A stretch of DNA of 64,000 bases from Cyanophora paradoxa CCMP329 (taxonomy: Eukaryota; Plantae; Glaucophyta): assembly GCA_004431415.1 (NCBI GenBank), contig QPMI01000496.1:1-64000 (forward strand), given 5' to 3'. A program made the translations under genes and the position numbers. Within the stretch, counting starts at the first letter, position 1, and each line of letters begins with the position of its first letter. Under the pieces are notes generated by a model. The model worked only from the letters and a program-made list of their open reading frames with translations. It did no database searches and was not told the origin of the DNA. This document shows positions 1 to 24,516 of the stretch, one piece after another.

Positions 1-260
1 GTTTAGCTGCATTCAGGCCTTCGAGCCACTCTGTAGTATAGTGCTAGTGCGCGGGCTGAGGCTGTAGCACTTCTCAATAGCTCATAGACTTGCCGGTACC
101 TCCGCAGTACCTAGGACTCCTCCGGCGTTGCCGGTTCGTAGACAGATTCTGTACCCCCCCCACGTTGTTCGATACCCCCTCAGTCCTGTAAGAAGCCCAG
201 CTGCGACCCGTTCGTGCTACGCCTGCGCGCCTGCTGCCTAGGCATGGGGCTGGGATCACA
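1..260 (+). repeat. 5' LTR of the giant Gypsy element (first ~13 nt outside the window)
   Basis: Matches 20135-20395 except for two 1-nt deletions (gtttagc[t]tgc; cccc[t]acg). Ends ...GATCACA. Confidence 0.9.
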
Positions 261-926
261 TTGGGACACTAACTAAGCCTATTTGACCCTCGCCGGGACG
301 ATCGCTGGCCTGACGGCGGTTCGACAACGACCCGCCGCCACCTGGCGTGAACCCGCGGGAGGAGAGTGCGTCATCCTCGACGGACGTGCTAGACTACACG
401 ACCGCGTGCCCGCTGGACGCGCCGACCGGCCGGAGCACGACCTAACTGACGGAGCTGACTTCCTTGTCCCTTCGCCAAACTTGTCGCGCGGCGTGCCTTG
501 CTCTACGCAGGACACGTGCGGGAACGAACACTCGCTGCAGGCAGTGACCCGTGTCTTGCGGCTCGCTGCCCCAGTGCAGGAGAGAGTGAGGCGAAATCAC
601 TCGACCTTTACGTGTAGCGACCCGTGACTTGCGGCTCGTTACGCCTAAAGGGCAACGTGTATCGGTGCGCGATCTGCACTGCACGTTGCTGTCGCTGTCG
701 TGTCGTACTCTCGTCGCGATCGTCGTGCTCGTGCACGCGCGCTGAGAGCTCCGCAGCTGTTGACAACACTGTCAGCAGCTCGGCCAACGACACGCAGTGA
801 CTGCTCGACTGCCCTCGCCCTCGTAGTCGGCCACACCGGCGGCCGCGATCGCGACGCAGTACGTTACGGACACACCGGCATACGCCGCGTACGTGACACG
901 CAGGACGTAAACGAGCAACCTGTACG

Positions 927-1560
927 GATCGCACCCGCTCACGTACGGTGAAATCTGTACGCGATCTTCAGAGCACCCCGCTCAGAGTCACCGTCACCCC
1001 GTCTCAACTTGTACGATCCACGCCACGTAGCGTAATCTGTACGTCGATCTTCAGGCACCCGCTCAGAAGATCACCGTCAACCCCGTCGTCAACTTGTACG
1101 GATCGCACCCGCTCACGTAGCGGCTGAAATCTGTACGTCGATCTTCCGAGCACCCCGCTCAGAAGGCCACCGTCAACCCCCTCGTCAACTTGTACGGATC
1201 GCACCCGCTCACGTAGCGGCTGAGATCTGTGCGTCGTCGATCTTCAGAGCACCTCAGCTCAGAAGATCATCAACCCCGTCATCTATTTTTACAGATCACA
1301 CCCGCTCACGTAGCGGCTGAGATCGTGCGTCGTCGATCTTCAGAGCACCTCAGCTCAGAAGATCATCCACCCCGTCATCTATTTTTACAGATCACACCCG
1401 CTCACGTAGCGGCTGAGATCTGTGCGTCGTCGATCTTCAGAGCACCCCGCTCAGAAGATCATCCTCGACTTCGTCGCCGGTCTACGGAGCACCTCAGCTC
1501 TCAGGACCATCACCACCGTACATCTTACTTCAGATCACACCCGCTCACGCAGCGGCTGCG
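927..1560 (+). repeat. ~96-bp tandem repeat, ~7 degenerate copies, in the element leader
   Basis: Unit core GATC(G/A)CACCCGCTCACGTAGCGGCTGAGATCTGT...GATCTTCAGAGCACC recurs at ~927, 1016, 1101, 1197, 1293, 1389 and 1532. Confidence 0.85.
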
Positions 1561-1610
1561 CTCCGTTCACCGACGGTCTTCGAAATCACTCAGAGACCAT
1601 CAACGTCAAC

Positions 1611-3480
1611 ATGAACCGCGACGAGCATGGCGGCTCCCGCATCCGGAACCCGGTGCCGACGCACGCGTACGGCGACTCGGCTGAGATTGCGGCGACCAAC
1701 CGTGCGGAGTCCTCGCAGTACGCGCGGAGTCGACGCAGAGCCCCCGACGCGCGTGAAGATTGCGGAGGGGCTCATCGCCACCAGCCCCGGCCAGCCCCTC
1801 AAACCTGAGGGCGTCATTACTCATATCAACGACGCCGCGCCATTGCTGCATCGGACCCAAGAAGTACTCGACCGAGAACGACGGCTCTCAGAAGAGCCTC
1901 GCCCTCCTCCTTGTTCTACTGCAAGCCCTGTCGGCAGGCCTCAGGTCCATCGTATCGACCCTTGTGCAAGGCACCGCTGTCAAGGTCAACGCCAAGGAGG
2001 CGGCCGACGAGAGATGCCAGGAGCTCGGCAAGCGCATCTTGGCCATGAGCAAGACGGAGAGGCAGGCTTCAACGGCAGCGGTTACTGGAACGCCTTAAGA
2101 AGGCCAACGCCGAACTTGAGAGCGCTGAAGCCGCGCTCGATCAACCCGGCACGATCAAGGCCTCCCCTCATACATGCGATTCCTCATCAGCAAGATTAGC
2201 CCGAGGAGAGTGAGGCCTTGGACACGCGCCTCAAGTCACCTTACGACGCAGTCCTTTACCCGACGCGCTGAAGGCCGTACACGACTTACTCCCATCCTCG
2301 ACCCTCCTCCCAGACGGACAGAAGATGAAGCCCATCGACATTGTGAGACGCTGAGAGCCAGATCAACCGACGCGCTGGCACAGTGGGGGATCTTACACCA
2401 ACATGAACACCCAGGAGGGTCACAACCGGTACCGTAACTTCCTGAACGCCCGCGACAAGATACCTGAATTGAAGCGGATCGCCCTCGAACACGAACCCGA
2501 GGACGACGCTTCAGCAGACTTCAGGAAATGAAGCTTGCTTCTTTCATGACCGACGCCTTCGCCGCTATACCACCTGGCCTCTTCGTCGAGGTCCGCTCGG
2601 CATCGACTGGGAGCTAAGTCTTCCAAGAAGATCTCTCGAGTCGAGCGGAACAGCGCCGGGAACAACGACGGGAGCAACGTGCACGACGGCAATCGCAGAG
2701 CTCAGACGACTCTGACGGCTCTGACTCCAGCTCGGGACATTCGAAGCGTAGGAAGAGTTCAAGCCGGGCACCCCTCGGGCGTCCGCGGTTACACTCATCC
2801 AAGCTCCGGACAACCGAACCGAACTCGGCATACACGGCAGCTATACTGCACCGGCCAACGACAAGAAGCAGACGGGGAAACCCAATTACAATTACCCGCG
2901 CGTTGAGAAGATTACTGCAATTAAACAACGGGAAGGTTACCACCGAGCAGAGAAGCCTAAACACCGCGGTACCAACCACGACTTCTACTGCTGGCGGTGC
3001 CCTGACAATTTACCGCCGGCCGAACGCCACCATTACGCTGACGATTACCTGGAATGCCCACGGCATGACTACCGGTATAAGCTACTGGAGATGATCCAGA
3101 GCGGCGACAACAACCCAATTGTACGAATGGCGCAGAAAACCTGCAAGATTCCCACTGGCTCAAACGGACAGACGGCGCCGACGCAGCCCACGCAAAATGC
3201 AGCGGCTAACCCGACGTCGAACCTCCAATGCTTTAACTGTCAAGGTTACGGACATCGCCAATCGGAATGCACTCAACCCAAGAAGTGCCGACTTTGTAAC
3301 TCAACTGAACACCTCCAAGCAAACTGCCCCCGGAACGGCAACCGTGACGGCGGTGCGGCGCAGGAGGCGGTAATAAGGACACCTACCCCTGGGTCGCGGT
3401 GACCGTGGTGGCCGCGGTGGACGAGGTGGCGGACGAGGCGGCGGACGAGGCGGCGGTCGCGCGGTGGTGGAGGACCTTCA
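1611..3480 (+). CDS. gag: Gag-like region, frameshifted in this assembly, with two CCHC zinc knuckles and an RGG-rich tail
   Basis: CFNCQGYGHRQSEC and CRLCNSTEHLQANC (CX2CX4HX4C twice) in ORF 3091-3402, followed by GRGDRGGRGGRGGGRGGGR in another frame. The start ATG at 1611 is tentative. Confidence 0.8.
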
Positions 3481-6400
3481 TCGCGCCCCCCCTCGGCATC
3501 ACTGCCAATGACAATCCTACAACGACGACGGACGCACCAAAGACCCCGGCCACGACGCCGGCGCCTACGTGCCCGTCTGACACCACTACGCCCCTCACAA
3601 CAGGTGTACCACAGACCCCGGCCACGACGCCGGCCCGTGGGCCCACCTGAACTACGGCTTCATTACACACGCCGACAGTGCCAACCACTGCAACGCAGGC
3701 CCCGGCCACGATGCGGCGCCGACGAACCCAGTGGAGACACCAGTCTTGCAAACTGTGCCGTACACGTCGCACAGCCAGTTCCAATGGAGAAGTGCCAGCC
3801 CCGACCACGACGTCGGCGCCAGCACCTACCTCACGCCTACGGAACAGCAAATCGCAGAACTGGTGCAAGAAGCTAGAACGCGGGCTACTAAACCACACTT
3901 CCAGCCCAGACCTGTTAACGTAACACAAGCTCTATACGACTTGCAGCGAGAAGAAGTACGAGTGTCGGCAGTGACATCGACCGTCCTCGACAAGGTCAAC
4001 AGAGCACTGGCTAAAATGGCCAACCTTGGAGCGCGAGCTGCACCCCAACCGCCCCAAGAGCAACAAGTATACAACCAAATTTGGCTTCATTCGGGAACGT
4101 ATCTCTGCAATTAACAAGCCGCGGCAATCCCAGTACGGGGATCGAAGTCGACAAGAACGCGACAAAGACCTGCTGGAACACGGACACGTGCGCTGAACAC
4201 CTCCAAGGCCTCTGGTAAGACGCTGCAGGACGTTACGGCGCGGGCCGCCAACCTCGGTCTCGAGATCGCGGCAACGAAGGCGGCACTTACCAGCAAAGGG
4301 GCAAGACCACAACGTCTCGACGGCAAAGGCTCATGACGGCAGCCACCCGTTGCCTCGACGGCGCAGAAGCCGGTAGTGGAGCACGCAACACCGGTCATCT
4401 CGCCTACGGTGAACCAGATCGTGGAGCGGCCGAATGTATCGCTGAGTACGTAGGGCCGCTCACGACGTACCTACGAGAAGTACTGGGCTACATGCACAGA
4501 CGACGCCTCGCAACCCCGTCTACTTCGCGAAGTGCCGGAAGTGCATGGTTCACACATGGCTTCCCTGGCTGCGACTTCCGACAGGCGTTCATCGACGCTG
4601 TCCTCTATTGCCCCAACTGAAGCACATTACCATACTCTTCGGACACAAGGGTGCGGGACTGTGTGCGACAGCAGCGGGTGCAAGAGAGCAGGCACTGCAG
4701 AACGGCAGTACCGACGTCGATGACGTAACGATGCTTCATCGGTACCCTATCCCTCACGAACATGTACGGCCCATCTTTCACCACGCTCTTGACTACAACG
4801 TCAACAAATTAGCTGCACCTCAACGCCAACACCACCGTTAGCGGAAACGCTGGGAGAGCGACCTTTCCACATTCCCAGACGTGGTTCAGTACGAGCCTCA
4901 CGGTGACGTTGGCGGCGAGACAACTTTCATTCACGAGTGCTGTGACCGGTGCAAGCCGATAACAATCCAGCAGTCGGCAGCCGGAGCACTGGAACCGCGC
5001 GAGATTCACGTCAGAGTCGGCAGCCTTCGAACGGACCGGCGGACCGTGCACTCCACTTGCATCTCACGACGCTTGTGATTCACTTCGCAGCTTGGGCCAG
5101 GCCCACCCAGCCAACGCAGCCGCGGGCCGACCTCAGTACATCACACTACTTAACGCACGGCAGTGCAAGCATTCTGGAACGGCAACCCAGTTGCGGAACT
5201 GACATGGATCGACCTTGCGTACCGGACGCTCGACCCCTCAGTGGTGACCGTGATCACGAACACTGGGATACGTTAGCTGAACATCCAGTCCAGCAACCCC
5301 AGACTTGACAGATCGACTTAATTTGACGACAGCTATCCGGGCTACAATCCTCAGGCGCACAACCTCCGCTGACCTCATACTGCTCAATGAGTGGGCGAAG
5401 CGGACGGCCAATGCAATCAACACTGGTGCATGGCAGCAGGCCGTGAATTGGACACGGCGGACCGACCATCCGACAACTACAACTTGGAACGAACACTTGC
5501 CCCGGCCACGGCCGCGCAGTACCAGTTCCTACGACACGAGATATTACACCCGCCCCGGCCACGGCCGGCGCGATCACCGTCCCTACTGCGCGAGACTCAG
5601 TACCTGCCCCGACCACGGCGGCGCAGTACATGTCCCGCCTCACCACACTCGACACCCACACCAGCAATAGCTGACGGGTAGCCCAGCCTCCTCCGACATC
5701 ACTTGAAATGCCATTGGACCGCGGTACCCAATGGACTTCAGAACAAGTATCACTGATACGAGGATGGGCCGAATCAGTACATAATCGCACACGGCGAGAA
5801 ACGTTGATCTTTGGAACTCTACAACTGCAGCCCAACGGCGGCACTCACATGGATCGTCACCATGATGCCCCCACGACGTACCCACGATAGCTCAAGCAGT
5901 TCTTGACGCTTATCTGGAAACGTACCCACGGAACTCGCTCGTGCCAGAGCCGACGAACTCCTCTGTCAAATGGATGCTCGCAACTCGGAACCGGAGTCGC
6001 AACGCGAAACCTTCCATGAGCTACATGCGAAGCCAAGCTAAATGCCTGACCACGGACGCTGTCAGCATCCTGCGCAGCGATTCCGGCCGGAAGCAATGGT
6101 GACTATAACATGTTTGGAGGCGATAGCTTCTTTACCAAACAGACGGTGAACAGCGTCTTTGTGAGCCCTGGCGCCCAGCAAATCTACATCCGCTGCGAGG
6201 CGGTTGGCTTTCCCGGACCATGCCCGGCAACGCCAGTCGCCCGAACGGCGCCATCACAAGGGCACGCAGCCACATGTCACACCACTGCCAACAGCTGAAC
6301 ATGTTATTTTACCGACGGCACCTTACAACCCCGACGGACAGTTCACCAGCACTCGCGTCGAGATGACTATGAACTGTGGGACGTGTGGCAAGTACCCACT

Positions 6401-9400
6401 CGTGTCTTATTGCAACTACCCAGACGCCGAGGTGACAGGCTTGTACCCCCATCCGACGCCTGTGGGCCCGGACGGCCCTTGGACCGGAGAGTAACAACTC
6501 GAGCCGAGGAGACGTTCAATGCAATCATCATGAAGCGCTCGCTTGTGGCCCGAGAGCCAGCTCGCCTGCAAGCATGGCTATGCCAATGTTTACGACCGCT
6601 TCATCAACCTTAACATGGAGCCGTTCGACGTACGTGCGTACAGAGTCCACGCCAACACAGAATGGTCCAGCACGCGACCCAACCAGCGGTTCAACTACGG
6701 GACCCTACGCACGGCAACTCGAACTCCAACCAGGACCGGGGACACGCGCAGCGCACCCCGACACCGGCTCACGGCCCATTGGTCAGCCTCACGACGCAAC
6801 CACAGCAGCACTGGCCTGAGGAAGCTCGCAATCCCCCGCGGCTGTTGAAGCCAACGACGGTCATCTCGTACCAGTCTCACGAGGCCGGAGTGGTAGACAG
6901 CCGTGGCTGCACCATTCCTTACTTCGCATCGGCGAGCACGGATCCGCCTACGAGTATTTCAATCCAATCCGAGTCACAGCCATCTTGCGCCGAATTTACG
7001 ACCCGGACGAGCAGCGGAAGTATAAGGAAGCCATGAAGATCATCCCTGAGTCATATGACTTCATTGCAGCCCAGCTGGAGACCAGTACAACCTGGCCCCC
7101 CTCATGGACATACCCGACTGACGACGACAAGCGTAACTTTATCGATCTTATGTACGAGCGGGAACGACGCCCGAGCCGAGCGCCTCAACGACCAGCTGGA
7201 ACCAAACCCGAACGGCGCCTGGATCCGTGGATCTGACGGCGAGCGTGAACACGGCGTACGACGCCGATTACGCCTTGGGTGAGGGCAAAGGTCCTTACAT
7301 GGCGGCGGCGCTTACTGGTTACGCTCGAGCACGGGACGCGAAGCGAACAGGACCGCCTCGAGCGCTACGCGGAAATACAAGCCACGACAAGTCCGGGTAC
7401 AGACCATCGCGAACAAGATGGAAGATACACCACGACGTCGTCATCTGAGACCCCGGAACGGACACCTTCACCCCCGTTCAGGCGACCTCGGCCGACCCCA
7501 AGCCCCAACTCTGGACGATCCCGGGAGTGGTGTCCTCAGCCCCAGCGACAGCGTGGCCCTTGGTTATGGCACTACGAATCCCTCCAGTCTCATTACCGTC
7601 GCCCCGGCCACGGCCGGCGCGCCGCAAACTGAGACGAATGCTACCAACGTAACAATCAACCCGAGCCCTGCATCTCCGACCCTTACGACGCCCCTGGAAG
7701 CCGCCCGGCCACGGCTGGCGTGGCTCAACCCGGCGTTATAGCTTCAGAGCAAGCGACTCCGGACATGACCATAACTGTCAGGGAGCAGACTTTGACACTG
7801 CCAACTGACAACGAATCGACCACGACCCCCGCAACTACCGCCCCGGCCACGGCCGGCGAGGTAGACAGTCGAACGTTGAGCCCACGGACACGCCCAGCAT
7901 GACAAACCCCGCCGATCACAGCCCTACGGCAAGGCCGGATGACTTCATCGTTGAGTCCGAAAGCCCTCCAGGACCCGACTGGATTGAATGCCCAGGGGAT
8001 TGCCGTCCCCGACTGTGGGCTCGCCCACACTCGCGCGCGTGGATATATGCACGTGAATACTGGCGATCCTGGAACGAGGAGGAGCCAACGGCAGAGGAAG
8101 ATGGCTCGGGACAATTCACATTTCCCGGACTTACCCTACTGTCACTGAGGATCCCCAGCGTTACATCCAAGTCGGCGACATTCCCGTCCCGATTCCGGAA
8201 CCTGAACCGCCACTTCCAGTCCCGCCGGAGACCGGCGCAATCGTGAGAACCACACACTTGGGCGAGGTCACTGCTGCAGTTTCACAGCGCCTCGGAGACT
8301 GTGGGGTCATACCAAGCACAATGCCCGGCTACGCAGAGGCAGCGGCTGCGGTCGACAATCCCAACCTGTTTGCAACCTATCGCAAGTACACGCCATGGAA
8401 TGCAAGTACGGACCCGTCCAAGACCGGCCTCTACCTCACAAACATTTCCACGCTGCCTGACGGACTCACGGAGCTGAACCCGGCTAACCGGCACGTCCTC
8501 GACAGACTCGTCACGTACGTCGATGTCGAGGAGCAATCAGCGATTTTGCTCAAACATACCGCCCATCTCCGCGCTGTCGCTTATGCGATCATGAGAATTG
8601 CGGGCACAGCCGACACTACGGATAGCTTGGAAGAGACGCTGCGTCACGCATCTGTCCTCGAGCTGCTGGGCCTTGATGCACAACAAGCAATAACCCTGAC
8701 GACTTCACGGCAAGGAATATTGCCTTGGCTCTTCGACGTCATGATCTCGTACGGCCGAAGCATGCGGGCACAATTCCCTACTTACTTCGAACCGCACGGG
8801 GACTACTATGCGCCTTTCCCCACTCTCGCCGACGCGCTGACGGTCCGCATGACGGCACTGGAACGCTTAATCCTCGAGTCGCACCTGCCGCCGCCCTTCG
8901 ACGACGAATTCGCGCCTTACCCACGGCGACACCTCCAGCGCTCGATCGAGACATCGCCCTCGAGATGCGGGTGACAGCCCTGGCCAACGCAATTCACATT
9001 GCAGCGGCTGGAGCACGCATCTACTTCCACTCGAAGCCTCGGGAGTTGGAACGGCATCACTCATGGCGCAGCCCTTGGCTTCGCTGTTCGGATCCGTTCT
9101 CGGCAAAGCCAAATAGGCTGCTGTGGCCGACAAGCCCAGACTTCTACTTCACAATGGGAGTCGAAATGGTGGAGTACATCACGCGCGTGCTCAACCTGCC
9201 CTTCGGAGGCCACTTCGCGAATAGCCCCAACAGCTGGCTGGCTACCGTCGACCGGTACCTTGACCGGACACAGACGCCCCGGAACAGGGGACCTTGGACG
9301 TTCCACGGAAGCCTTCGAGCTCCACGGTGTATTACTCGACGAGTACAAACTAGCGGTGATTGAATGTAACGAGCGACGCCTCGACTACTCCGAAGACCCG

Positions 9401-12400
9401 CTTTCTCCACTCTGGAGAGGTCTTCAGGCGTTCCGGACCGGTGCCGAGAACTCCGGCAACGTGTTCGTGACCCATCTCTCCGCGAGGACAGCCTTAGGGC
9501 GTGCCCGCGAGCTCGGCGACGTAGCAGCATTCCGACAGGCCCTGCGGCTCCATCTGGACCGTTACCCGGAGAGAGTACATGAGCGCGTCGGTGCTCGTAG
9601 CTACCCGAGCAGCTTCGAGCTCAGCCGCGTGGAACCGGGACCTGACCTGCAACTGTCACTGGTTGAAGGCTACCCTGAGGGCCCGTACACCATCCGTATT
9701 CAACATCAGGAGGCGGTACTCCTCTCCAACCCCACGTTGTGGCACGCCACTGTTCTCGACGCATTGTATTGGGCGTTGAAGCGTAAATACAACGGGGACA
9801 AATGGACGGATGCGGAGGATTGGCAGGCTCAGTGCCTGGCATACGGAATGACAAACCGCCTTCGACTGATCGACTCCCAGCCGAACACCCTAGTCCGGCT
9901 CTCCCTCGTCCGGGCGATCATGTTCGGGGCCGACAAGATTCTCGGAATTTTCCAGTACTGGAACAAGTCGAAGGAGAACCTACTTGCGGATCTTACACCC
10001 TGCGTACCGAACGATTACGTGAATCCAAGCACGGCAACCATCGACATTATGCAGGCGTACAACGTCCCATTTCCCCCGATACGTCAGAGGATCACGGAGT
10101 ACGGCCTCAATTGGGACACCCGCTTCCTCCTGCGTTGGGCAGAACTGACCACGCTCCGAATCCACGATTCCATGTTCTTTACGGCCGACGACGAGACCAC
10201 ACTGCGGAGTCACCCCCTCATGTTCTCAGGACGGAAACGACCGCCCCCGGCACCGGTGCAGCAACCACGTAGCACAACTTCAGGCTCAACTGCTAAACGC
10301 GTGGGCCTGAAAAAGGGCCGCAAGACAGTAATATCGGAAGACGAGGCTGGTGACGATTGGTTTTACGAAACTGTCGACCTCAGCCGGAACGCCCGGGCCA
10401 TATTCGGTACCCGATATTACTACAAGTTCTTCGGTGCCGACATCATCGAGAACGGCTACGTTACCGACAAGTTCGAACGCGTCGGATGGTGGGGCGACCC
10501 CAGGAACGCATCCACCGCAAGCAATCATACTCAAGTGCGGGGACTCGACGACAGCGTCGATACTCAGTGGGCATTTGAGGCGGGGCACTCGGGCCTCCAG
10601 CACGGGAGGGGACAACACAACGACTTCCGCTTGTTCACGCTGTCTTACCACAAGGATCTGCCGGCACTCGAACGTCTGGAGGACCCCACTATCCCGAGGA
10701 TAGTACGGTGCAACTCTACGACGTGACACGCTCAGACACGCGCAACGAAGTATACACGATCAACAAACAGCCGCTCGCATTCCGAGGCGTCGAATTCTTT
10801 CTCAGTACTCTCAGCTCCGCGATGGCCGAGAACATGAGATACACTCCGTGGTCTGCCGTCCTCGTGGCAGAAATGTGCAGTGCCTCGCAACCTCGGTCCT
10901 CGTTCACGCGTGACTTGACGGCATTGGAGGAGTACGTGAATACGAAGCCTGAATGGGAACACCCACTGGCAGAGAGCCAAATTCAGTACTTCATGCACGG
11001 CGACACGAACATGGACAAGTTCATGCGGAAGCTTCCAGAGTTCAGACCGATCCACGCGCTTAACCAGCTTCGTTGGCGCGGAGCACTACAGGCGCTCGAC
11101 GGCGTGGTACGCCATCGGGCACGCAATCGTTCCAACCCGTACCTGCACGGGGTGCAGACCGTGACAGATGACGGCAATACCCGCAAGAACCGTTGCGAGA
11201 TCAAGTTTACCACCTTGACAATCGCTCCCGCCAATGAGCACAACCCGTTGAATGAGCTCGGTAACTACCTCACAGCGTTCCGAAGCCCACTCGAGCGGCC
11301 TCAGGGACATGAAATGGCTCCCCCGCTTGGCAACGGCGGACCCATGCTGGCACGTTCCACGAGTTCAACTCCCCGACGATACTGAGCGACACCCTGGAAG
11401 TCTTCGCCAACGGCGGCCCGCGAATTTACACAAAGACGCGGACCAGGGACACCCAGGCTGTCGTTCACGTGTTCGATGCCAACAACCGTGACACTTGGCT
11501 CCAAATCGCCCGTTCGAACAGGCCACAACGGCCCGCGGACCAGCCTGCATACTTCGACTACAATCGCATACCAATTCTGCTTGAGGAGACGATCCTACCC
11601 GGCGGCGTCTGGAAGACCATCGAGAGGCCTACTAGGCCGACGGAGGGTGCATTCATCCACGTTATCCCCTTCAAGCCGGAAGTACATCACTGGGTCCACC
11701 ACTTCGCACATCACGTAGCAGCTTCAATCCGTTTGTACACGGCGTTCCCGTCGAAACAGATGCCAATCCACGACGGCCTGCTGGAGATTCTCGACGAATA
11801 CGTGACTTCGAATGCGAGCCTACTACACTTCCGTGTCGACGACGACGGCAACATGACCGTGTCTCAGGAACTGCAAGACTGGTACGCCCGGGATTTTGGC
11901 ACGGCAACACCACCACCCGGCGCCATGTTTGCAACGGCCTTCATGGCACTACTAGTCACGGCGATTACAACGCAACTCGCGGCAGTTGTCCGCCACGGGG
12001 CCCTCGGCAATGCCGGGCGCGCCTCCACAACAGCCAAGGAGACATGGCAACGCTACGAAGATCGCCAGTCGCAGCATGCACACTTTCCCGCTGCCTTCGA
12101 CCTCCCTGTCAACGTCATCGAGATGTTTGGACACGACGGAACCATGGTCGGCAACAGGGGCATGGACAACCTCGGCATGGGCGTGAGCCAATACACGTTC
12201 AACAGGAACGAGTTCGAACGGTCCTGGCGTCATTACGAACAGCACGTGGGTCCGGAGGTACTCCTACAGTACAATGAGATCCACGCGTCCGAGGAAGATT
12301 CGATTCCCGAATTGTTTCTCCTTGACTACGGCGCAATACTGTTCTCCGACGACCTCGTGGAGCATCGTACGCGCTGGATAACGCTGGCTTACAACGCTTC

Positions 12401-13761
12401 CGGCACGTCACGGGACGACCGCATCACCATGACAGCTGAACTGGCACCCCCTTGCGGTACAGCGGAGGTCTCACAGAAGCCGACGGAGCAAATCCTAGCC
12501 GTTTCGGGCCCCACCTCTACATCGGTGACGACGAGGACGGAGCTCCTCCCGGACCATTTGAGGGCGTCGGGTTGTCCATCAACCCGCTGCGCGGCGCTCT
12601 ACAAGTCGACCCCCGATACCCGCGGACGTACCTGTACGACCAGGCGACGGGGACGATGGAGCAGCCCAGGCTGGTACGACGGCAGAACGCGGCCGCCGCG
12701 AATCCAAGTCTAGCCGGTACGAAGCCGAGGCCGAAGCGCATGAAGGAGACAGACCTCCCGAACGACGGCGAGAAGGAGCACAAATGGGCCCTGTGGATCA
12801 CACCGCGAACAATTGACGGTGCTCGGGTCGGCGGCAAGACGCCCGTCGTGATTGACAGGGGTGACACGGCTCGGGCACTTCGCCTTTGTCGCTTCGACGT
12901 CGCACCCGAGTTCAAGCCCCGTCTGCCCCAAACAGGAGTTCACCGCGTTCGCTTCCGGCGCGTCGCCCGAACACCACCGGTAGCGGGCAGCGACAGCGAC
13001 ACCACAAGCACGACTTCTCGAACTTCGGCACTAGCTCCACGCGGAAGTAAAGGAGCCCTCCCGCCTACCTTCTACTTCCGTGCACACTACCGTGACCTCT
13101 CCCAAACGCCTGTGGACACCTCGTACACGGAGTACAGCTGGGAACGCTTCGCGGCACACGGTCAGTCTCACGAGTCCATCCCCGTACTCTGGCCAGACCT
13201 CTGGGACGAAGACGGAACGAACTTCAGGACTGAATACGATTTGTATGACTGGAGCGCATTCCGAACACCGCATCAGCTCAATGCTGACGCCCTCGTGTCA
13301 TTGGCTGAGGATCTGCGAGCACGGCCGCCTGACCTCTCCAACTCGGCGGGAGCCTCCTTGGACGTCGTGCGCACACGCGCCCTGTTCACTCGCATGGCGT
13401 TCATCATGAACACTTTGGGGTTCACCGCGTGGGACGCGGTCAAACACGCCTCGCTCGTCTCCATCCATCGGGACCGCGCTCGATTTTACTTCAACTCGAT
13501 CCTGCAGGGCGACACCCGCCTACCTCACCAGTGGAAGACGCTGGTCAGCTACTTGCGCGAGGGCCTCAGTCGCCACGGCCATCATTACGCGGAATACGAC
13601 ACGCTCGTCGACTTCGATCCCAACCCTGACTCGGATGAGAGCATCGCTTACATCTGGTTTGGCCGGAAGACCAGCGTACACGCCCAATACCTCACAACAT
13701 CCCGAGACGAGGACTCGGATTCAGCCGGCAGGACCACAGCACTCGTCCTAGCAGCGGCCCG
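3481..13761 (+). CDS. ~10 kb uncharacterised coding region between Gag and protease (fragments of a probable single giant ORF)
   Basis: Chain of protein-like + strand ORFs (8243-8974, 8725-9363, 8999-10726, 10708-11385, 11469-12713, 12452-13786). From 8999 onward the reading frame steps consistently by -1. No family was confidently recognised. Confidence 0.7.
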
Positions 13762-14520
13762 GTGCCGTCCAACAGCACCCGCCTGATTCCAAACCGACCT
13801 CGAACCTTCGCGGCGGTACATGTTTTCAACAGAGCACATGAATCGGTCTCCAAGGTGGAGAAGACTGCCCGCATCCGGGTTGCCCGCCTCCCACCTGACG
13901 CCATCTCATCGTCACGACCTTTGACGACGCCAGTGGAACGGAGCTACCAGACAGCACTTCGTGTCCGCACGGCAAGAATGCTCGGTTGGCTGGGTGACAT
14001 CGTGTCTCCTAACGACATACCTACAGCCGAGGATACGGCAATTGGACGTCGAATCGCTCAGCTGACAAAACCCGACCGGACAATGAAGCAACGGATTGCA
14101 GATGGTCGCATCTGCGTGTCGGTGCGACTCGGGTCCTATGCACCAGGACGGAAAGTCGGACCGTCCGTCAAAACTCTGGCGTTGGTGGATACGGGCGCCG
14201 CAGCTGACGTGATTGACGGAGACCTCGCTGCGCGCATCGAGGGCCTCCGTTACAGCCGCGCGCCGCCAGTACAACTGACCGGATTTGGCGACGACATGAC
14301 GGCTTACGCTCGCATCGCCTACATGGCGGTCATGATTGGTCCCGTACGGTCGGTGAGAGAGGTCCTAGTGGTGGACAAGGGCCTCATGGGGTCTACTCAA
14401 ATGCTCCTTGGATTGGCGACGCTCATTGCCATGAACGCTCACATCTCGCTCGACCCGACTAACTGGGGAATGACGATCACGGCACCTGACGCCGACAATG
14501 GCGAACGATACCATGTCCCT
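13762..14520 (+). CDS. Retroviral-type aspartic protease domain
   Basis: LALVDTGAAADVI catalytic motif, LTGFG flap-like segment and MLLGLATL motif in ORF 13762-14823. Confidence 0.9.
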
Positions 14521-15599
14521 TTTTGCTTGCGGACCAGACCGACGGGGGCGTTCTGGTCCGCCTCGCCCAAGATGTCACCGTCGGGCCAGGCGAAGCTCTC
14601 GTTCGCTGTTACGTCTCGACGGGCCCTCAAGACGCGACTGACGATGCGCCGGAGATGCTCCTCACGCCGCCGCCGCACATTGTTGGAGACGACGACGGAG
14701 CCGACGACCCCGGTGAAGGAGATGAACCGCGTCATCTTGTCCCTCACCAAATACATCGACGTCCTCGAGGAGGAGCTTTCCTCGCTCAGGTCTGCAATCC
14801 ACAACGCCGACCCGTCCGCTTGAAAGCGGGACCGTCATCGCGGAGGCGGAATTCGGCAAGTGGCCCGAGAGCGAGTTCCGACCCACGACGACGTCCATCG
14901 ATACCCGACGGGTACTTACAAGACCTGGTCGAGTGACGAGAAGCGCAAGTTCCCCATCTCTTCCATTGCCGTCCAAATCCTCTCCAATGTGCAACCCGTG
15001 ATTGTACCTGGGCGATCACAGCCTCGACGTTACGTATCCCGAGTGCACGAACAGTACCCCTCTGTTTTTGCACGGCCACCACAACCCAGACCGAGGACCA
15101 AGGCCTAGACCCGCTCACAGAGCGGCGCCGACGCCCCAGTCCTCACTTCCGAAGCTCAAACCCAACTCTCACGCTTCGTGACTGCGTTCGTCACGCGATA
15201 CACCGAGAATCACGCGCGATTCTGACGCCATCGGAGATCAACGAGTTGTGCAAGATCTTCGAACCCCACTTTGCCGATACCTATCGGCAAGGCAGGCCCT
15301 CCTCAGCCCTGTATGCATCACGTTTGCCCCGACCACGCCGTCGGCGCAACCGCGTTGCATCACCATCTCCTCCGCTTCACCCGCCGAACCCCACGCAATG
15401 GAACCTCCTTCGAGCGCCAACGCCACCCCCCACCACAGACGGAGGAGGAGGTCCGACAACTCGTCGACGATCTCATGCAGCCGTCGAAAGACGACAACGA
15501 TGTGACGGAGGAGGAGCGTGACCAACTACGTAGCCTCTTCACACGGATGGCGCACTGCTTCGCGCAGCGCATCAACCCAAAGAGCTACTGAAGTACCGT

Positions 15600-17054
15600 C
15601 ACAGCATCCGACTCCTCCCCGGCGTACCTACGAAGCATCTGCCTTTGTACAGCGTGCCCCGGCGCCTCTCTCCCCTGCTGAGAAGGCGGCCAAAGCCGAA
15701 ATCGAACGACTGCTGCAAGATGGTCTGATCGAACCCTCCCAAGCTGGATACGGTTCCCAGTGGTACTGGCGCCCAAGAAGGACGGGACAATGAGATTTTG
15801 CGTCGATTACCGCAAGCTGAATTCGCTCACGGAGCGCGACGTCTTTCCTCTCCGAGAATAGACGATCAACTCGAACGCCTGCAAGGCGCGACGTACTTCT
15901 CGACGTGTGACGCCACCTCCGGGTTCTGGCAGCTTGAACTCGACGAAGAATCCAGGCCTCTGACGACGTTTATCGTGCCCTGGGGCATGTACCAATGGCG
16001 AGTTACCCCGTTTGGTATTACGAACGGACCAGCGGCGTTCTGTCGAGCAGTGACATCGATCTTGGGCAATCTGCTGTCGACAAGCGTTGTCGCTTACGTT
16101 GATGACCTCACGGTCCACTCCCCGACGGCCTCACAACACCTTGTCGACCTTGAGGCTTTCTTCGCCGCGATCGAGCGAGGAAACCTCAAGCTCAAACCGT
16201 CCAAATGCCGTTTCATGGTGAAAGAGATCGACCTACTCGGACACCGTGTCAGCCGCAACGGCGTGAAGATGGACAAGACCAAGATGGCCCTCATCGAGAA
16301 GACCCAGGAAAAAGATCTCGGAACTGTCGAGTCCATTCGCAGCTTCATCGGCATGACTGGATTCTACAGACGGTTCATTCGCAACTACGCGAAGCGGGAA
16401 CTGCCCCTACGCGACCTAGTCACGCGAGCAACACGAGCTGACTCGCTGACGGTCACCTGGGACGATGACGCTCGACGGGCGCTGGACGACCTCAAGGCCG
16501 CCATCATGGAGGATGTCGCACTACTCTTACCCGACTTTGCCAAACCATTCGTCATCCACACGGACTGGAGCAAGCGCGCCATGGGGGCGGTCCTCATGCA
16601 GGCTGACGACTGCGGACGAGAGCGTCCCATCGCTTTCATCAGCAGGACCCTGACTGCGACGGAGCGCAAGTTTCAAAGTCCGACGGAAGGGGAATGCATC
16701 GCGGTACTCTGGGCGGTGAAAGTGTGGAGCCATTACTTCGAGTGCGGGCACCCATTTACAGTCCGGACCGATCACTCGGCACTCCAATGGTTGAAGTCAC
16801 AGGACGTGACGAACAACAAGGCGCTCTGTCGAGCGGCGCTGGGACTTCAGGGCTACAACTACACCATCGAGTACCGCGCGGGGCGCACCAACGTTGTTGC
16901 AGACTTCGAGTCGCGTCTGGAACCGTCACACGACCTCTTCCTCCAGGAGCGGGTGACGGCTCAGACCTCACGACTGACATCCCCGACGGAGCTCGAGGAT
17001 TCGGTGTACCCCGCCGAGGCGATCTCGACGACCCAACCCAGCTCTTCGCGGTAG
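15600..17054 (+). CDS. pol: Reverse transcriptase and RNase H (Gypsy-type Pol), with frameshifts near 15750-15860
   Basis: [55 protein letters not shown]; RNase H motifs [29 protein letters not shown] and NVVADFESR. Confidence 0.95.
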
Positions 17055-17431
17055 CCCCCACGGACACGCTCGACGGGCCAGCATGGGCGTTGGCGCCGGG
17101 AGCGAAGCGGCGTCGCCAAGCGCCCCCTGTAGACGAGCATCGACCCGTTGGCCAACGGCTCGGTCCCTCCTCTACAGCACCCAGCCGCCGACGTCACCCC
17201 CAGTTCGCGACGGCGAATTCGGCCCGACGGCGACAGTGACACCGGTGACGAGGACGAGAGTGCACAGCCCCTCCGCCCCGACGCACTCGCACTGAGCCTT
17301 CGCTACCACCCCACGCGGACGGAGCTCAGTCTCAGGGACAAGAGGGCTGCCCAGCCCCGTGCCCCTTTCCCGAAGCGACCACGTGGACGCCCGCGGAAAC
17401 TCCCCCTCCTCCCCCTCTAAACGACTCGTAC

Positions 17432-19666
17432 TTGCGAGCTTTGGAATCCGAACGAGATCGGAAACGCCTCCAGGCGCAAGCTGGCCCTTCTACCTCGTCC
17501 GTCGGCAACGGAATCCCCGCTCCACCTCCGCGCGACCCGCTCACCGAGCGGCTTGCACGTGGTGAGCGAGACAAGGCGAAGACGACAACCAAGCAGCAAC
17601 GCCGCGAGTCAGAGGAGCAGTACAAGCAGGCCCTCGATAACCGCCGCGAGCAGCTGTCAGACCAGGCCAAGAGTCGTCACGATGCCAACCGCCGCTCGTG
17701 CAACCGACCGGAACCGCCGACCAAGTCGACGCGACGCGAAGCGAGGAACGCCGACTGGGAAGCGTGGAAGCAGTCAGCAGACACCCCTCAGCGGGCCGCA
17801 GACCTGCCCCCTCGCCTCCCAGGGAGGAGATCTCGATCCTCTCGCCACTCCATTGCGCCCCCCGCCGTTCTCGACGTCGCCGACGAAGCTGAGTACGAGG
17901 CGTACTTACAGCAGCAACGCGACTCTGGAATTCCTCAGCCTACTCCGATGAGCACCGACGCTGTCGCGCCGCTGGACAAGTCTCCTATTGGCCCTGCCGG
18001 AGGAGACCGCAACAAGCCCGCAGTCATCCATCTACCTGACGACGTGGTGGTGGAAGATACGTGGCTGCAGGGACCCCGACCACTGGTCGACGTCCCCGTA
18101 CCACCGTCTGTCGCCAAACTCGCTGTCGACGGCGCCGCCGTCGTTGCAGCACAGGCGGAGGACCCGCTCTGTCAACTGCTGCGAGCCTTCATCTGCAAGG
18201 GCGAGAACAACGCCATGTGCCTTCGGCACCGGCGAGCGGCGACGGTAGAAACAGAGATTGTGCAGCAATGCATTCACTGCGAGTCTGCGAGACGACGGTT
18301 CGCTCGTGAAGCCGAGGGCTACACGATCGATGAGGAGGGCACTGTCCTTCGGCTACCATTCCTGCCTACCATGCGAGCTCAAATCCTCGTTCCCCCGTCG
18401 TGGCGACGCACCTTCCTCGAGGTGTATCACGACGGGTGGGCACACCGCGGCGCTCCCATTGTGGCGCGGCGTATCGCGTCTCGTTTCTGGTGGCCGGGGA
18501 TGACGAACGCTGTTCACCGCTTCGTGAAAACGTGCCGACACTGCCAGTTCGCGAAGGCGCAACGCCGCCCGAGAGTCCAACACATGGTGCTGGAATCCGC
18601 GCATCCTGGGGACTTGAGGCAGGTCGACCTGTTCCCCATGGAACCTCACAGGCGCGGGGTCCACCTCTTCACCGGCGTGATAGTCGACGTCGACGCCTTC
18701 ACCAAGTTCCCGGAGATTATCATGTACACCGCGGCTGACGGCCAGGCCCTGGAGATGGCGGCACAGATCATCTTCGCGGCTAACGGTGCTCCCAAGCGTT
18801 ACCTCTCTGACAACGGGACGGTCCTCGGACCGAAGTCTCTTTGGGGAACCTTCTGGCGAGCCAAGGGTACGCGCATGATCTACACTGGGATCAACCACCA
18901 ATCTACCAACGGTGGCGCTGAGCGTCTGGGCGGCATCTACAAGCGATTGGTGTACGCGATGTGCGACGAGAACCACGAGCCTCGCGCTCACTGGCCCTTC
19001 CATCATTACAAAGTTCTCTTTGCCTTGAGGACAACAATCCATGCGGCGACTGGGTTCTCGCCGGCAGTCTTACACTACGGGCGCGAACTGCTCCTACCCG
19101 ATGAGCTTCGACTCGATCTGGTACTGCGGGAACCAAACGAAGAGTCGATCTCTCTGTACGAGTACGCGCTGTCGGCGGCGAGGGCCGCTAAGGATCGGAT
19201 CACTGCGGTGGCCGAGCACCGGCGTCTTTACAACGAGAAGTTGCTCCGTTACGGGACTGGCCGCGAGCCTACCTATGTCTTCCAGCCTGGCGACAAGGTG
19301 TTGGTGTGGATTATCACTGCCAAGACTAGCGCGCGAATCAAGGGGCCGAGGAATGGCTGGACGGGTCCCTACGTGGTGCAGGAGATCCATTCCCGAGGCC
19401 TTCTGTACACTGTACGCGGGGAGCCATCGTCGAACATGCATCGATCCCAGTCGATCCTTGTTCACGTTGACCTCATGATCCCCTTTTACGATCGGCCGGC
19501 CGACGTGGCAGAGCCTCGACGTCAGGGCCGACCGCCTCGAGCCGCTCCCCTCCGGCCGCGAGCGATCCCGACGCCATTGATGGAGCTGTACCCCTTGACG
19601 ACGAGGTCGAAGAGGACGAGGTCGTGGTACCCCGGAACCTGTCGGCGAGGCCGTCGTTGTAGATGA
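17432..19666 (+). CDS. Integrase with a long N-terminal linker
   Basis: HHCC (YHDGWAHRG...CRHC), catalytic QVDL / SDNGT / NGGAERL, and GPY/F module (FQPGDKVLV...WTGPYVV). No C-terminal chromodomain seen. Confidence 0.93.
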   Translation: MRALESERDRKRLQAQAGPSTSSVGNGIPAPPPRDPLTERLARGERDKAKTTTKQQRRESEEQYKQALDNRREQLSDQAKSRHDANRRSCNRPEPPTKSTRREARNADWEAWKQSADTPQRAADLPPRLPGRRSRSSRHSIAPPAVLDVADEAEYEAYLQQQRDSGIPQPTPMSTDAVAPLDKSPIGPAGGDRNKPAVIHLPDDVVVEDTWLQGPRPLVDVPVPPSVAKLAVDGAAVVAAQAEDPLCQLLRAFICKGENNAMCLRHRRAATVETEIVQQCIHCESARRRFAREAEGYTIDEEGTVLRLPFLPTMRAQILVPPSWRRTFLEVYHDGWAHRGAPIVARRIASRFWWPGMTNAVHRFVKTCRHCQFAKAQRRPRVQHMVLESAHPGDLRQVDLFPMEPHRRGVHLFTGVIVDVDAFTKFPEIIMYTAADGQALEMAAQIIFAANGAPKRYLSDNGTVLGPKSLWGTFWRAKGTRMIYTGINHQSTNGGAERLGGIYKRLVYAMCDENHEPRAHWPFHHYKVLFALRTTIHAATGFSPAVLHYGRELLLPDELRLDLVLREPNEESISLYEYALSAARAAKDRITAVAEHRRLYNEKLLRYGTGREPTYVFQPGDKVLVWIITAKTSARIKGPRNGWTGPYVVQEIHSRGLLYTVRGEPSSNMHRSQSILVHVDLMIPFYDRPADVAEPRRQGRPPRAAPLRPRAIPTPLMELYPLTTRSKRTRSWYPGTCRRGRRCR

Positions 19667-20107
19667 CTGTGATGTTGACTCTGAGGATGGAGATGCTGAC
19701 GCCACCTCGGCGTGAGTCGATTGCCACACGTGACGCGGCCACGGCTGCCTCACGCTGATCAGTCGACGTTAACGGTTGGGATCCTTTCTGAGCGATGACA
19801 AATTGGATGGTGATTTGCTCCCCGTCTCTGAGGCGGTGCACCCTGCACGCGCGCTCCCCTGGAATGTGTGGCCCTGGGTTTCCCTGCTACCATTCTGAGA
19901 CGAGGCGAGTACCGGATCATGCCGGACCGATGTCGCGGGCCGAGGGCCATTGCTCGCGCTAAACTAAAACTTTTCCTTTGCGCAGCGAGCGGCTGGGTAG
20001 CGGCTGTACACCGCTGCTTGGTTTTGCTCTGTCAAGGCTGCAGCGGGGCCTCGGGGCCCGTAAGTCTGTCGGGACGGCCGCCTGGTGTGGCCGCGAGGAC
20101 GCGACCT

Positions 20108-20120
20108 AGGGACAAGAGGG
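20108..20120 (+). other. Polypurine tract of the giant Gypsy element
   Basis: AGGGACAAGAGGG lies one nt upstream of the TGTTG LTR start. Confidence 0.65.
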
Positions 20121-20121
20121 C

Positions 20122-20395
20122 TGTTGCCACTGTAGTTTAGCTTGCATTCAGGCCTTCGAGCCACTCTGTAGTATAGTGCTAGTGCGCGGGCTGAGGCTGT
20201 AGCACTTCTCAATAGCTCATAGACTTGCCGGTACCTCCGCAGTACCTAGGACTCCTCCGGCGTTGCCGGTTCGTAGACAGATTCTGTACCCCCCCCTACG
20301 TTGTTCGATACCCCCTCAGTCCTGTAAGAAGCCCAGCTGCGACCCGTTCGTGCTACGCCTGCGCGCCTGCTGCCTAGGCATGGGGCTGGGATCAC
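20122..20395 (+). repeat. 3' LTR (~274 bp, TG...CA)
   Basis: Starts TGTTGCCA after the PPT and ends GGGATCACA; direct repeat of 1-260. Identity continues ~26 nt further, to 20422. Confidence 0.85.
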
Positions 20396-20828
20396 ATTGG
20401 GACACTAACTAAGCCTATTTGAACATATTCATACATGTCGCAGCTCTGCCCTTTGTGGCATCTGCATGTCTTGTTTTTTGCTTTGAAAATCGCCTATGGC
20501 GTGCACTTACATCGACATTTATTGATTGCAAATTGTCAGGACAGCTCTGCCCTCGCGTGGCATCTGTTGCTGTATTTCTTTTCAGTGCACGGCACTAGTG
20601 CATACTCCCTCGCCGGAGATGGAGATTCGGTCGCCATTTTTCTTTCCCTTGCGCAGTTCAAGCATCTGGAGTTCAGGCACGCCTCCCCCCATAAATCGCT
20701 CGTTGCACTGACTGGCGACCGAACGCATCGATGGCATTATACATACGCATTTTACATATATGTGTGCTTCTGTGTGCCGTTAGAGGCCTTGCACTCGTCT
20801 GCAGGCTCTCGGCCTTCGCTCTTTTGCT

Positions 20829-20889
20829 CTTCATGGCAATTGTACAAGTAGTACCTCAATTGCAATATACGAAATGAGCGCTGTCCGAA
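20829..20889 (+). repeat. 61-bp direct repeat, internal copy (B1-like split repeat)
   Basis: CTTCATGGCAATTGTACAAG...GAGCGCTGTCCGAA, identical to 29945-30005. Confidence 0.9.
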
Positions 20890-21241
20890 TAGTTGTTATA
20901 CGAGGAACGTAGTATAACGTACTTCGGACAGCGTGAATAATGTATATTGTTACATAAATTTCGCACTCTTTGTTGCTTCGCAACAAGTACTTCTTGGGTA
21001 CTTGTTGCACCTGCAACAAGTCCTACGAGCTTCCTAAGAGCTGCAGCAGTGAGCTATCGCTGCAGCTGCTGCAGCTTCTCTTCAGAGTTGCTTGATAGCA
21101 GCTTCGCTTCTTGCTCCCACCCAACCCTCCCTAAATATATGGATGCTGTTCTGCTGTCTATATAATTCCCTCCCCTTGCGTGCGGCCTCGAGCCTGCATT
21201 CTCGTGCACTATTAATTGCGTGCTGTTGTTTTTTCTGTCAG

Positions 21242-23143
21242 GTTTTACTGCTCGCTGTCTCGGAAGTGCGGATGCCTTGGCGGCATGGCGTGCAATCGGA
21301 ACAAGTGATTACATCCTTTCATGGCTTCAGAACGGCTACCCTCTTGCTGGCGTCGAGCATCTGCCTCCTAGTGTACATTACAATGCTGGTCAATCTCAGC
21401 GCCCTCGTGAGAGTACTTTCATTCGGGCAGAAATTCAGAAGCTGCTCGGTACCGGCGCTATTCGGGTGGCCCCAAGCCCCCGAAAATTGTTTGCTCGCTA
21501 TTTACGGTTCCAAAGAAGACTGGTGATAAGCTCAGACTGATTTGGGATGGCCGCCCAACAAATCGAGGTCTTCCTCCTGTCCCTTTTCGCTATGAAAATA
21601 TGCGCGAGGTCATCGCCTTGCTGCGACCTGGCTGGTTTATGTTTACTATCGACCTCGAGTCGGGATATCATCATGTACCGGTAGACCCGCAATATTTCTC
21701 GTACCTGGGCTTCCAGTACGATAGTACTTTCTTCGAATACACCGTTTTACCCTTCGGGCTCTCACATGCCCCATATGCATTCACCAAGATCATACGTCAG
21801 GTCATTAAATTTCTCCGCGCACACGGTATTACCGTGGTATCGTATGTAGATGATTTCTGGTTTGCGGCTCCCACGTACCAGGCCGCTGTTAATCTTCGCA
21901 ATTTCATTCTCGATCTTTTTCGCCACCTGCACTTATTCATTAATGAGAAATCGGCCCTTGAGCCTGCACAGCGTGTCGAATTTTTAGGGTTTATTGTAGA
22001 TTCCACATCTATGATGTTTGAGGTCCCTCTGCAGAAGCTTAGTAAGCTTCAGGACCGGCTAAAGGACGCAGCTAAGCGCATCCAGTCGTGCCAGGCTAGA
22101 GGCGTGCAATTTCAGATGTCAGCTCGTACACTCGCTTCGATTGTCGGTGTGCTTATGTCAATGGCCTTAGCTATTGCACCCGCTCGCATTCATACTCGAT
22201 CCATTTATCGCAACATTGATATTACCCAGCGACAATTTCGGTGGAATGCCCCGGCGGTGGTATCGCCGGAGGCCCAGGAGGAGCTTCTGTGGTGGCATGC
22301 AAATCTCGCCCGCTATAATGGGCGGTGTGCCATCCGGCCAGAGCGAATTTTCGTTGTTACGACGGATGCCAGCAAGATCGGTCTTGGTGGTTTTGTCACC
22401 ACCGAGGTTGGCGATATCTCATTCCAACAACAGTGGACTCCTGCAGAGTCGGCCCAGACGCCTGCATGGCGTGAGATGACCGCCATTATTCGTGCTCTGC
22501 ATCATTTCAGTCCTTACCTGCAGCACGTTAATTTACTAGTTCGCTCAGATAACACAAATGCAGTGCAGTACATTCTTAATGGTGGCGGTCGTAGCCCCGA
22601 GCTTACATTAATCGCCAAGGAAATTTGGAATTTCGCCTTGCAAAATTGTGCCTTCATGGATGCTGAGTGGATACCTGGAGAAACCAATAATTTCGCCGAT
22701 TATCTTAGTCGCTGGTTTGCCCCTGCTGACTATCAGCTTTCCGATGCTGTTTTCCGTCGCATTGTTAACAGATATGGCTTGCCTGATGTCGATCGAATGG
22801 CATTAGCTTCCTCTGCACGTGTCCCTCGCTATAATAGCATTGATCCTTTTGACCGCCTTGCAGAGGCAGTAGACTGCTTCACTGTTGATTGGTCTCGTGA
22901 TTTTAATTATGTTTTCCCCGACCCTGCAGTCCTACTGCGGGTGGTTCGTCATGCTCAAGCTTGTCGAGCTCGGATGATTGTTGTAGTACCCGAATGGCCC
23001 TCACAGCCATGGTGGCCTATCTTGCAGGCTGCAGCTGTGGAGCCCCTCTGCATCTTGGTCGGGGCCACACAGTATGCCTTTTCGGTCCAACTCGTGCTGC
23101 TCTTCCTGAGTGGCTGCTCCTCGCTTTTCTAGTTCAGTTTTAG
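21242..23143 (+). CDS. DIRS-type reverse transcriptase / RNase H / DNA adenine-methyltransferase-like polyprotein (frameshifts near 21480 and 23045)
   Basis: ILSWLQNGY, EIQKLLGTGAI, IDLESGYHHV, LPFGLSHAPYAFTK, SYVDDF; RNase H TTDASKIGLGG, WREM, RSDNT, NNFADYLSR; MT-like VDCFTVDWSRDFNYVFPDP...VVPEWPSQPWW. Confidence 0.92.
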
Positions 23144-23225
23144 CTGTACCCAATTGCAAATTAGTGTCAAATAATTATAAATGCAATCGAGCGCACACCC
23201 TCATGCTTCTAACCATACCCTGCAG

Positions 23226-24147: not shown

Positions 24148-24516
24148 TTCCGGCGTTGTCTTTGTCTTTGGGGGCGCGGGCACCCTTGCCGCCACTGCGG
24201 ACGTGCCGCATGGCGGAGGCTGCCCGCTTACCCTTCTTTTATTATTCATATGCAGATTCATATTCCCATTCATTTGCTTTACAGCTGCATGAGCATGATT
24301 TCTCTTATGTCTGTCATGCATATGATGCATGAGCGCATTCATACTGTAGAATTAGATATAGAGTAGCTGCAGACTTTCTGCATTCATAGCTAATCATTTG
24401 TAGTCTCTATATCCTTTAGTACTCTTCTTTTCCTCAATATTCTCTTCAACCATTTATACACACAATCATTCGTAACCGAATGAATTGTAAACTAGCTGCT
24501 AGGAAATCCAAATCTT

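Follow-up and report, generated by a model that had tools for sequence, protein, structure and literature searches.

Long terminal repeat (LTR) retroelements of the Metaviridae (Ty3/Gypsy) possess two LTRs, a polypurine tract (PPT), and the domain order Gag, protease (PR), reverse transcriptase (RT), RNase H (RH), and integrase (IN), the protease being part of pol and located directly behind Gag (PMC7879559). The planarian giants Burro and GYPSM1, in the passages that describe them, display a single Gag-to-IN open reading frame (ORF) of 4,873-5,140 aa, with in-frame cargo ahead of PR-RT-RH-IN (PMC6431247). In the large Ogre elements (Tat lineage, plant Ty3/Gypsy), as far as the excerpts on them go, the first ORF ends with the protease and the second comprises RT-RH-IN (PMC6317226, PMC6431247), an intron separating GAG-PROT from RT-RH-INT (PMC6317226). 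Positions 1-20422 of the window, the 64,000-nt stretch analysed here (contig QPMI01000496.1, assembly GCA_004431415.1), are a young, low-copy Ty3/Gypsy-type LTR element of 20.4 kb from the glaucophyte Cyanophora paradoxa CCMP329. It works like Burro, from which it differs in cargo, LTR length, and Pol expression. Its ORF1 joins a cargo of ~3,600 residues to the protease, probably begins with Gag, ends at a stop at 14821, and is followed by Pol, likely reached through a -1 frameshift. A comparable arrangement is found in alpharetroviruses such as Rous sarcoma virus, where the protease ends the Gag ORF and a -1 frameshift leads into RT-IN, without any large insert inside Gag. The Cyanophora element shows no env-type ORF behind IN, and its RT is closer to that of Ty3 than to the retroviral PDB chains listed.

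The likeness to Burro is one of layout. Both start with a CCHC Gag followed by thousands of extra residues and then by PR, RT, RH, and IN, and both harbor tandem repeats and an internal region of ~20 kb or more. However, Burro is a single ORF, whereas in the Cyanophora element the ORF1 stop lies behind the protease and Pol is in the -1 frame. The cargo reported for Burro comprises MATH, BIR, ankyrin, BCL2-like, and env domains; that of the Cyanophora element matches no family, and the element stands apart by repeats of ~0.3 kb, few copies, and an algal host (PMC6431247, in its parts on Burro). The initial annotation of this DNA had seen here a candidate new lineage of cargo-bearing giants; the cargo is real, but an insert placed behind Gag and ahead of the protease is already known from planarian Burro, which that annotation did not name (PMC6431247, same parts). 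The partition of the ORFs is shared with Ogre, yet there the ORFs are joined by the splicing out of an intron, the LTRs measure 1.9-6.5 kb, and the extra ORFs are separate (PMC6317226, PMC6431247, in the excerpts on Ogre), whereas here the ORFs overlap, no splice was seen between them, the repeats are short, and the cargo is in frame with the protease. LTRs, PPT, and Gag-PR-RT-RH-IN order are those of Ty3 and other Metaviridae (PMC7879559), with the difference that here ~3,600 residues lie between Gag and the protease, which ends ORF1.

The Ty3/Gypsy assignment rests on the repeats, the PPT before the 3' LTR, and the enzymes. Self-comparison of the window aligns 1-286 with 20135-20422 at 99.3% identity (288 columns, 2 gaps, 0 substitutions), in keeping with the initial annotation, which had the two LTRs differing by two 1-nt gaps without substitutions and the element young. 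Its bracketing repeat stands, but not the length of 274 bp, since the identity reaches 286 and 20422 on the 3' side; judged from the purine tract, the LTR is ~0.3 kb long. The TGTTG at 20122, just behind this tract, is probably the start of the 3' LTR, while the repeat identity ends in TTTGA, not in CA. This identity extends 27 nt (20396-20422, 260-286) beyond a possible ...TCACA end, the extension being either a non-canonical LTR end or the remnant of a tandem copy behind the 3' copy.

Pfam places two CCHC knuckles in 2752-3399, the protease within 13639-14820, RT/RNase H in 15729-17051, and integrase in 17249-19663 (RVT_1, RT_RNaseH, Integrase_H2C2), hence the order Gag-PR-RT-RH-IN of Ty3/Gypsy; the knuckles near 3.2 kb and the protease near 14.2 kb are where they had first been noticed. 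Ty3 is the best PDB match of RT-RH (first of 12; E 3.5e-39 vs 1e-24 for the next groups, with no BEL/Troyka chains among the matches) and of the integrase (first of 6; E 8.2e-12), whose D-D-E residues align to those of Ty3. No close RT relatives were found in the metagenome or viral contigs scanned, no chromodomain match in 17249-19663 at E 0.1 (the last ~50 residues are in other frames and acidic), and no env-type ORF behind IN in the ORF list. The Pol frame, -1 relative to ORF1, is stop-free over 14490-15860 with X at 11 read-supported breaks, and its end, placed at 19660 by the initial annotation, is probably near 19715 according to the frames. A dUTPase-like reading of the region following the protease was set aside, Pfam giving no match. 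Between RNase H and the integrase zinc finger, ~430 coding residues are found at 16900-18200 (z 3.9 for 16900-18000), which make up a second, smaller insert.

The frameshifts of the window are mostly deletion errors, as expected from the long-read deletions proposed earlier: over 17.6 kb, the short-read contigs are longer by a net 96 letters and differ by 2 substitutions. In run X1, a single contig of 17,773 nt spans 2474-20100; against the window it shows 98 gaps, a net gain of 96 letters, and 2 differing letters. The letter sum is the same in X3 (80 + 16), and that of X7 (70 + 20 + 4, with two short holes) agrees. Every indel row listed is a letter missing from the window, namely 12/12 in the comparison with these contigs (of 127) and 12/12 for 13650-15900 (of 13). 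The successive ORF starts do step by -1 (frames f2, f1, f3, f2, f1, f3), as had been remarked, but the one from 13762 to 14523, the last, is genuine: none of the four runs places an indel between 13700 and 14827.

The same breaks are bridged by other copies. The cargo ORF 8975-10723 matches a protein cluster whose named members are near-identical C. paradoxa gene models, and a second cluster adds three models. They are spread over six named contigs, of which five are counted as other contigs: P0008 is excluded because it shares the window's break at 13700 and possibly stems from the very copy seen in the window. The breaks at 8921 and ~9290 (4/4 each), 10694 (2/2), ~11345 (3/3), ~12445 (4/5), and 13700 (3/4, the exception being P0008) are bridged in models from other contigs. 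P0002, P0007, and P0009 tile 8762-14820, and P0007 and P0009 each hold cargo and protease within one frame in one model. The cargo is thus present in other copies of what is a multi-copy element, gene models on the five other contigs reading it into the protease in a single frame. Furthermore, at least half of the words of 5000-14900 are found in 20/24 listed runs.

Behind the protease, ORF1 stops. In 13650-15900, indels occur at 13700 and next at 14827 in 4/4 runs, so the TGA at 14821-14823 is real; P0002 and P0009 terminate at the same residue. The single ORF from 1611 to 19660 (~6,000 aa) put forward at first is therefore abandoned, and one uninterrupted ORF of ~6,000 codons has next to no probability: most breaks are indeed errors and the summed length is right, but the TGA is found in all four short-read runs and in the models of two other copies. 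A product of ~6,000 aa thus needs a -1 frameshift. Read-through of the stop into Pol was rejected, as the ORF1 frame stops again near 14999.

Slippery heptamers followed by a stem are established drivers of -1 frameshifting in retroviruses. In ORF1, C CCT TTT at 14517 is the only canonical in-frame heptamer of 13700-14823. It is located at the protease end, 27 nt into the overlap of the ORF1 and Pol frames (334 nt, no gap), whereas the other validated codons show 0 in-frame canonical heptamers in 2,784. A stem comparable to the one behind it follows 1/2,570 arbitrary positions, the 43-nt fold has a z of -2.23 (5/200 shuffles), and the 45-nt window ranks 12/3,598. Judged from these sequence features, -1 frameshifting at CCCUUUU 14517 into RT-RH-IN is likely, and the predicted product would likely comprise ~4,333 + 1,738 residues (~6,070 aa). 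A second heptamer, at 2875, was set aside, having no stem and breaking the phase sum (see below). Rfam returned 3 weak matches, far below the gathering score.

Pol might instead be expressed from a spliced message, as in Ogre, or from one with an internal start, but this is judged highly improbable. Ogre carries an intron at precisely this junction (PMC6317226, in the excerpt on Ogre), the present element has at least one spliced intron, a Met is found in the Pol frame near 14657, and the wider 91-nt fold around the slippery site is ordinary (z -1.09, 30/200 shuffles). However, neither the X17 nor the X19 contigs, which drop rare forms, display a splice joint over 13650-15900, whereas the X17 contig does lack the 3' intron; and the overlapping frames hold a single in-frame heptamer followed, after a 5-nt spacer, by a perfect 10-bp stem. 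The 3' intron has an AG/GCGAGT donor, a pyrimidine tract, and a CAG acceptor. X17 has a 14,982-nt contig over 6566-20100 from which 19905-19985 is missing, 81 nt that X1, X3, and X7 keep; such skipping in a likely-RNA run suggests that the element is transcribed in its own direction. In X19, a contig of 1,531 nt shares 30 nt with the element at 14918-14947 and then runs into sequence absent from the window.

The cargo noticed by the initial annotation between Gag and protease amounts to ~10.8 kb, or ~3,600 residues, and matches no family. In Pfam, 0/11 ORFs between knuckles and protease match any family, the upstream cargo being scanned as broken fragments, and no match under E 0.05 is found in the cargo of P0002, P0009, P0010, P0012, and P0013; MATH, BIR, ankyrin, BCL2-like, and env domains are absent from these Pfam results. 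PHROGs, NCBIfam, PDB sequences, IMG/VR, JGI metagenomes, and phage records gave no match either, and a word-based search of proteins up to 2,000 aa found none outside Cyanophora. Using phmmer, P0001 (819 residues) retrieved 3 matches among 1.84 billion 50% representatives, namely itself and two Cyanophora models. The ESM Atlas returned no usable match for P0002 1-800, and AlphaFold2 on alignments of 4-5 rows reached mean pLDDT values of 32.5 and 32.0, which are unusable. There is no strong transmembrane stretch, one mildly hydrophobic 19-mer scoring 1.69 in P0002 and none reaching 1.8 in the + frames of 2000-8800.

Two diverged paralogs are nevertheless colinear with the cargo: P0013 shows 25% identity along 866 columns (E 6e-44), P0010 31% along 580 columns (E 1e-73). 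The persistence of long open frames at this distance (25-31%) points to constraint on the cargo, which is conserved as protein in these paralogs. The cargo could still be a passenger, captured a single time from a host or viral gene family or as a nested element and spread by recent transposition, which is very improbable. The paralogs exist elsewhere in the species as gene models that may or may not lie in LTR elements, and among young copies no selection signal is seen (3/4 X17 differences in cargo of known frame change the residue). On the other hand, the cargo is in frame with the protease in two complete models and on the element's strand, it lacks introns (DNA vs likely-RNA contigs) and internal terminal repeats (self-comparison), its contig depth, not taken as copy number, is even with Gag and Pol in 3 DNA runs, and the P0010 model ends in a diverged form of the element's leader repeat. 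Short-read contigs ~85-92% alike to 1850-2640 and 19818-20100 have also been found. They cover gag and the 3' untranslated region (UTR) only, which could fit a passenger, and they suggest a sister or non-autonomous family; among the differences listed in its gag sequences, 13/20 are silent third positions. In one 2.47-kb contig, the linker motif of the cargo precedes the part that matches the 3' UTR, and nothing integrase-like is seen at 85%.

The fusion of Gag to the cargo over 2400-8760 is likely, on the following evidence. The start of ORF1 is stop-free over 1611-2400, with 12 read-supported breaks read as X. A capsid domain found no family match on the two broken Gag fragments scanned with Pfam, the knuckles being present. 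Under a codon model that had learned from the validated frames, the + strand of 3330-8760 has a coding score of z 8.8 (60 shuffles); its five sub-intervals each reach z 2.0-5.5, without any non-coding gap, whereas leader, 3' UTR, and flank range from -0.6 to 1.4 (leader 300-900, z 1.1). Over 1611-14823, 13,213 window letters plus 86 (12 + 70 + 4) make 13,299 nt, which divide evenly into 4,433 codons. Subtracting 70 letters takes frame 3 at 2475 to frame 2 at 10141, the one in which the proteins are read, and 11 additional letters over 3303-3901 join the knuckle frame to the next long frame. Moreover, 8057-8971 aligns to residues 429-679 of P0013 (E 1e-4; 0/200 shuffles reach the score), one of 39 fragments tested against this paralog by shuffling. 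The fragment 5281-5667 also had 0/200 but lies in a frame not taken as true, and three Pro/Thr-rich fragments scored through composition; none of these was used. Three Pro/Thr/Ala-rich clusters, at 3.5-3.7, 5.5, and 7.6-7.85 kb, hold 8 copies of a 9-nt 'PAT' motif and look like linkers. ORF1 would then likely run from ATG 1611 to TGA 14821-14823, with a predicted 4,432 aa.

Alternatively, Gag and cargo may not be one protein, real stop(s) in 2400-8760 leaving Gag, an accessory ORF, and the cargo-protease to be translated apart, a possibility regarded as unlikely. This interval was not corrected letter by letter (~67 letters are missing, and 12 of 127 indel rows are listed), P0001, P0002, P0003, and P0006 all begin at the Met of window position 8762 and none further upstream, and 2 stops were left in the best coding path through 3330-8760. 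Burro relatives, as described in part of PMC6431247, shift domains between polyprotein and accessory ORFs. The phase tests, besides, pass by chance 1 in 3 each and are blind to in-frame stops. However, by the net letter counts ATG 1611 is in phase with both the knuckles and the cargo, the frame is open across 8762 and homologous there to one paralog model, and no sub-interval of 3330-8760 harbors a non-coding gap. Furthermore, the coding path used 32 shifts where ~59 are expected, so that its 2 stops are expected artefacts.

Beside what has been granted to these alternatives, a few observations weigh against the arrangement favoured here, with Gag, cargo, and protease in ORF1 and Pol behind a frameshift. 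No primer-binding site was found (no TGG at the repeat end and no self-priming match of at least 8 nt), and no target duplication either, the 5' flank lying outside the window. The five other contigs need not be separate insertion sites, and X17 and X19 are runs guessed to be RNA. Within the overlap (14526-14820), the third-position GC is 0.86 in the ORF1 frame vs 0.58 in the Pol frame. The 100-codon tail of ORF1 may thus be a real protein part, and both overlap frames may matter.

In the favoured arrangement, the 20-kb genomic RNA would be translated into Gag-cargo-protease, a minority of ribosomes slipping at 14517 and adding RT, RNase H, and integrase. As cargo and protease precede the frameshift, each Gag molecule would bring one cargo and one protease. 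Inside the particle, the protease would cleave the precursor, perhaps near the Pro/Thr/Ala linkers, and so release several mature proteins; those of the cargo would be packaged in, or built onto, a particle that must hold the 20-kb RNA. A structural or particle-associated role of the cargo, rather than a rare catalytic one, has about even odds; it is favoured because the cargo would be as abundant as capsid. A bolder view, held to be quite unlikely, is that of a separate old lineage of giant reverse-transcribing glaucophyte viruses: several families 25-31% alike, with a 4,400-residue Gag precursor whose 3,600-residue insert of new folds would build an enlarged or cell-leaving particle without classical env, as a functional counterpart, independently invented, of the in-frame env region of Burro.

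Table 1. Features of the Cyanophora paradoxa element, in window coordinates.
Feature	Position	Strand	Evidence
5' LTR, truncated by window start	1..286	+	repeat match to 20135-20422
Degenerate tandem repeats in 5' leader, ~90-nt unit	916..1476	+	self-BLAST, 76-87% identity
Gag region: ATG 1611, likely capsid part, two CCHC knuckles ~3226-3330	1611..3340	+	PF00098, E 4e-6
Upstream cargo with three Pro/Thr/Ala-rich linker clusters	3341..8761	+	coding score, motif, paralog alignment; stop-free status not established
Downstream cargo, single frame in other copies	8762..14130	+	P0002, P0007, P0009 tiling; paralogs
Aspartic protease (LVDTGA), in frame with cargo	14131..14520	+	PF13975, E 4.9e-5, below curated cut-off
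Pol frame: post-protease region, RT, RNase H, long spacer, integrase (HHCC zinc finger, D-D-E)	14490..19715	+	
Predicted -1 frameshift signal: C CCU UUU, 5-nt spacer, perfect 10-bp stem	14517..14560	+	heptamer and stem counts, folds
TGA ending ORF1	14821..14823	+	no indel 13700-14827 in 4/4 runs
81-nt GC-AG intron in 3' UTR	19905..19985	+	skipped in X17 contig
Polypurine tract	20108..20120	+	13 purines, 1 nt before TGTTG 20122
3' LTR, exact ends uncertain	20122..20422	+	self-comparison, TGTTG start behind purine tract

Other elements are found further along the window. A tyrosine-recombinase retroelement adjoins at 20829-30005, with RT/RNase H at 21411-23132, the recombinase at 23383-24147, and identical 61-nt repeats at 20829-20889 and 29945-30005. 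Inside it, identical direct repeats of 283 nt, spaced 5,090 nt apart at 24516-29888, may mark a gag-only LTR element: between them lie an ORF of 526 aa (25238-26818), with a CCHC-like end by eye and no Pfam match, and tandem repeats at 28400-28914, but no long Pol-like ORF. Host-like genes are located at 46680-57135, including RING finger and cyclophilin fragments (weak Pfam matches) and, on the - strand, cytochrome b5 and molybdo-oxidoreductase-like exons recognized by eye.

The C. paradoxa genome paper puts LTRs at 1.77%, and the passages of it consulted do not describe the element (PMC6704402). Methylated repeats have been reported in this alga, without the element being named in the part concerned (PMC12344493), and no description of it was found in the literature searched for the alga or its group, which included neither Repbase nor subscription journals nor supplements. 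With this element, giant Gypsy elements that bear cargo are known from an early-branching alga as well as from planarians. Its predicted Gag-Pol of ~6,070 aa would be longer than the 4,873-5,140 aa given for Burro (PMC6431247, in its parts on Burro), and it carries ~3,600 residues of conserved protein without a relative outside the species (819 residues searched against the 1.84 billion representatives). As the ORF1 stop lies behind the protease, cargo and capsid would be made in equal abundance, and a cargo at capsid level would make both the particle size limit and the role of the cargo testable in the cultured alga.

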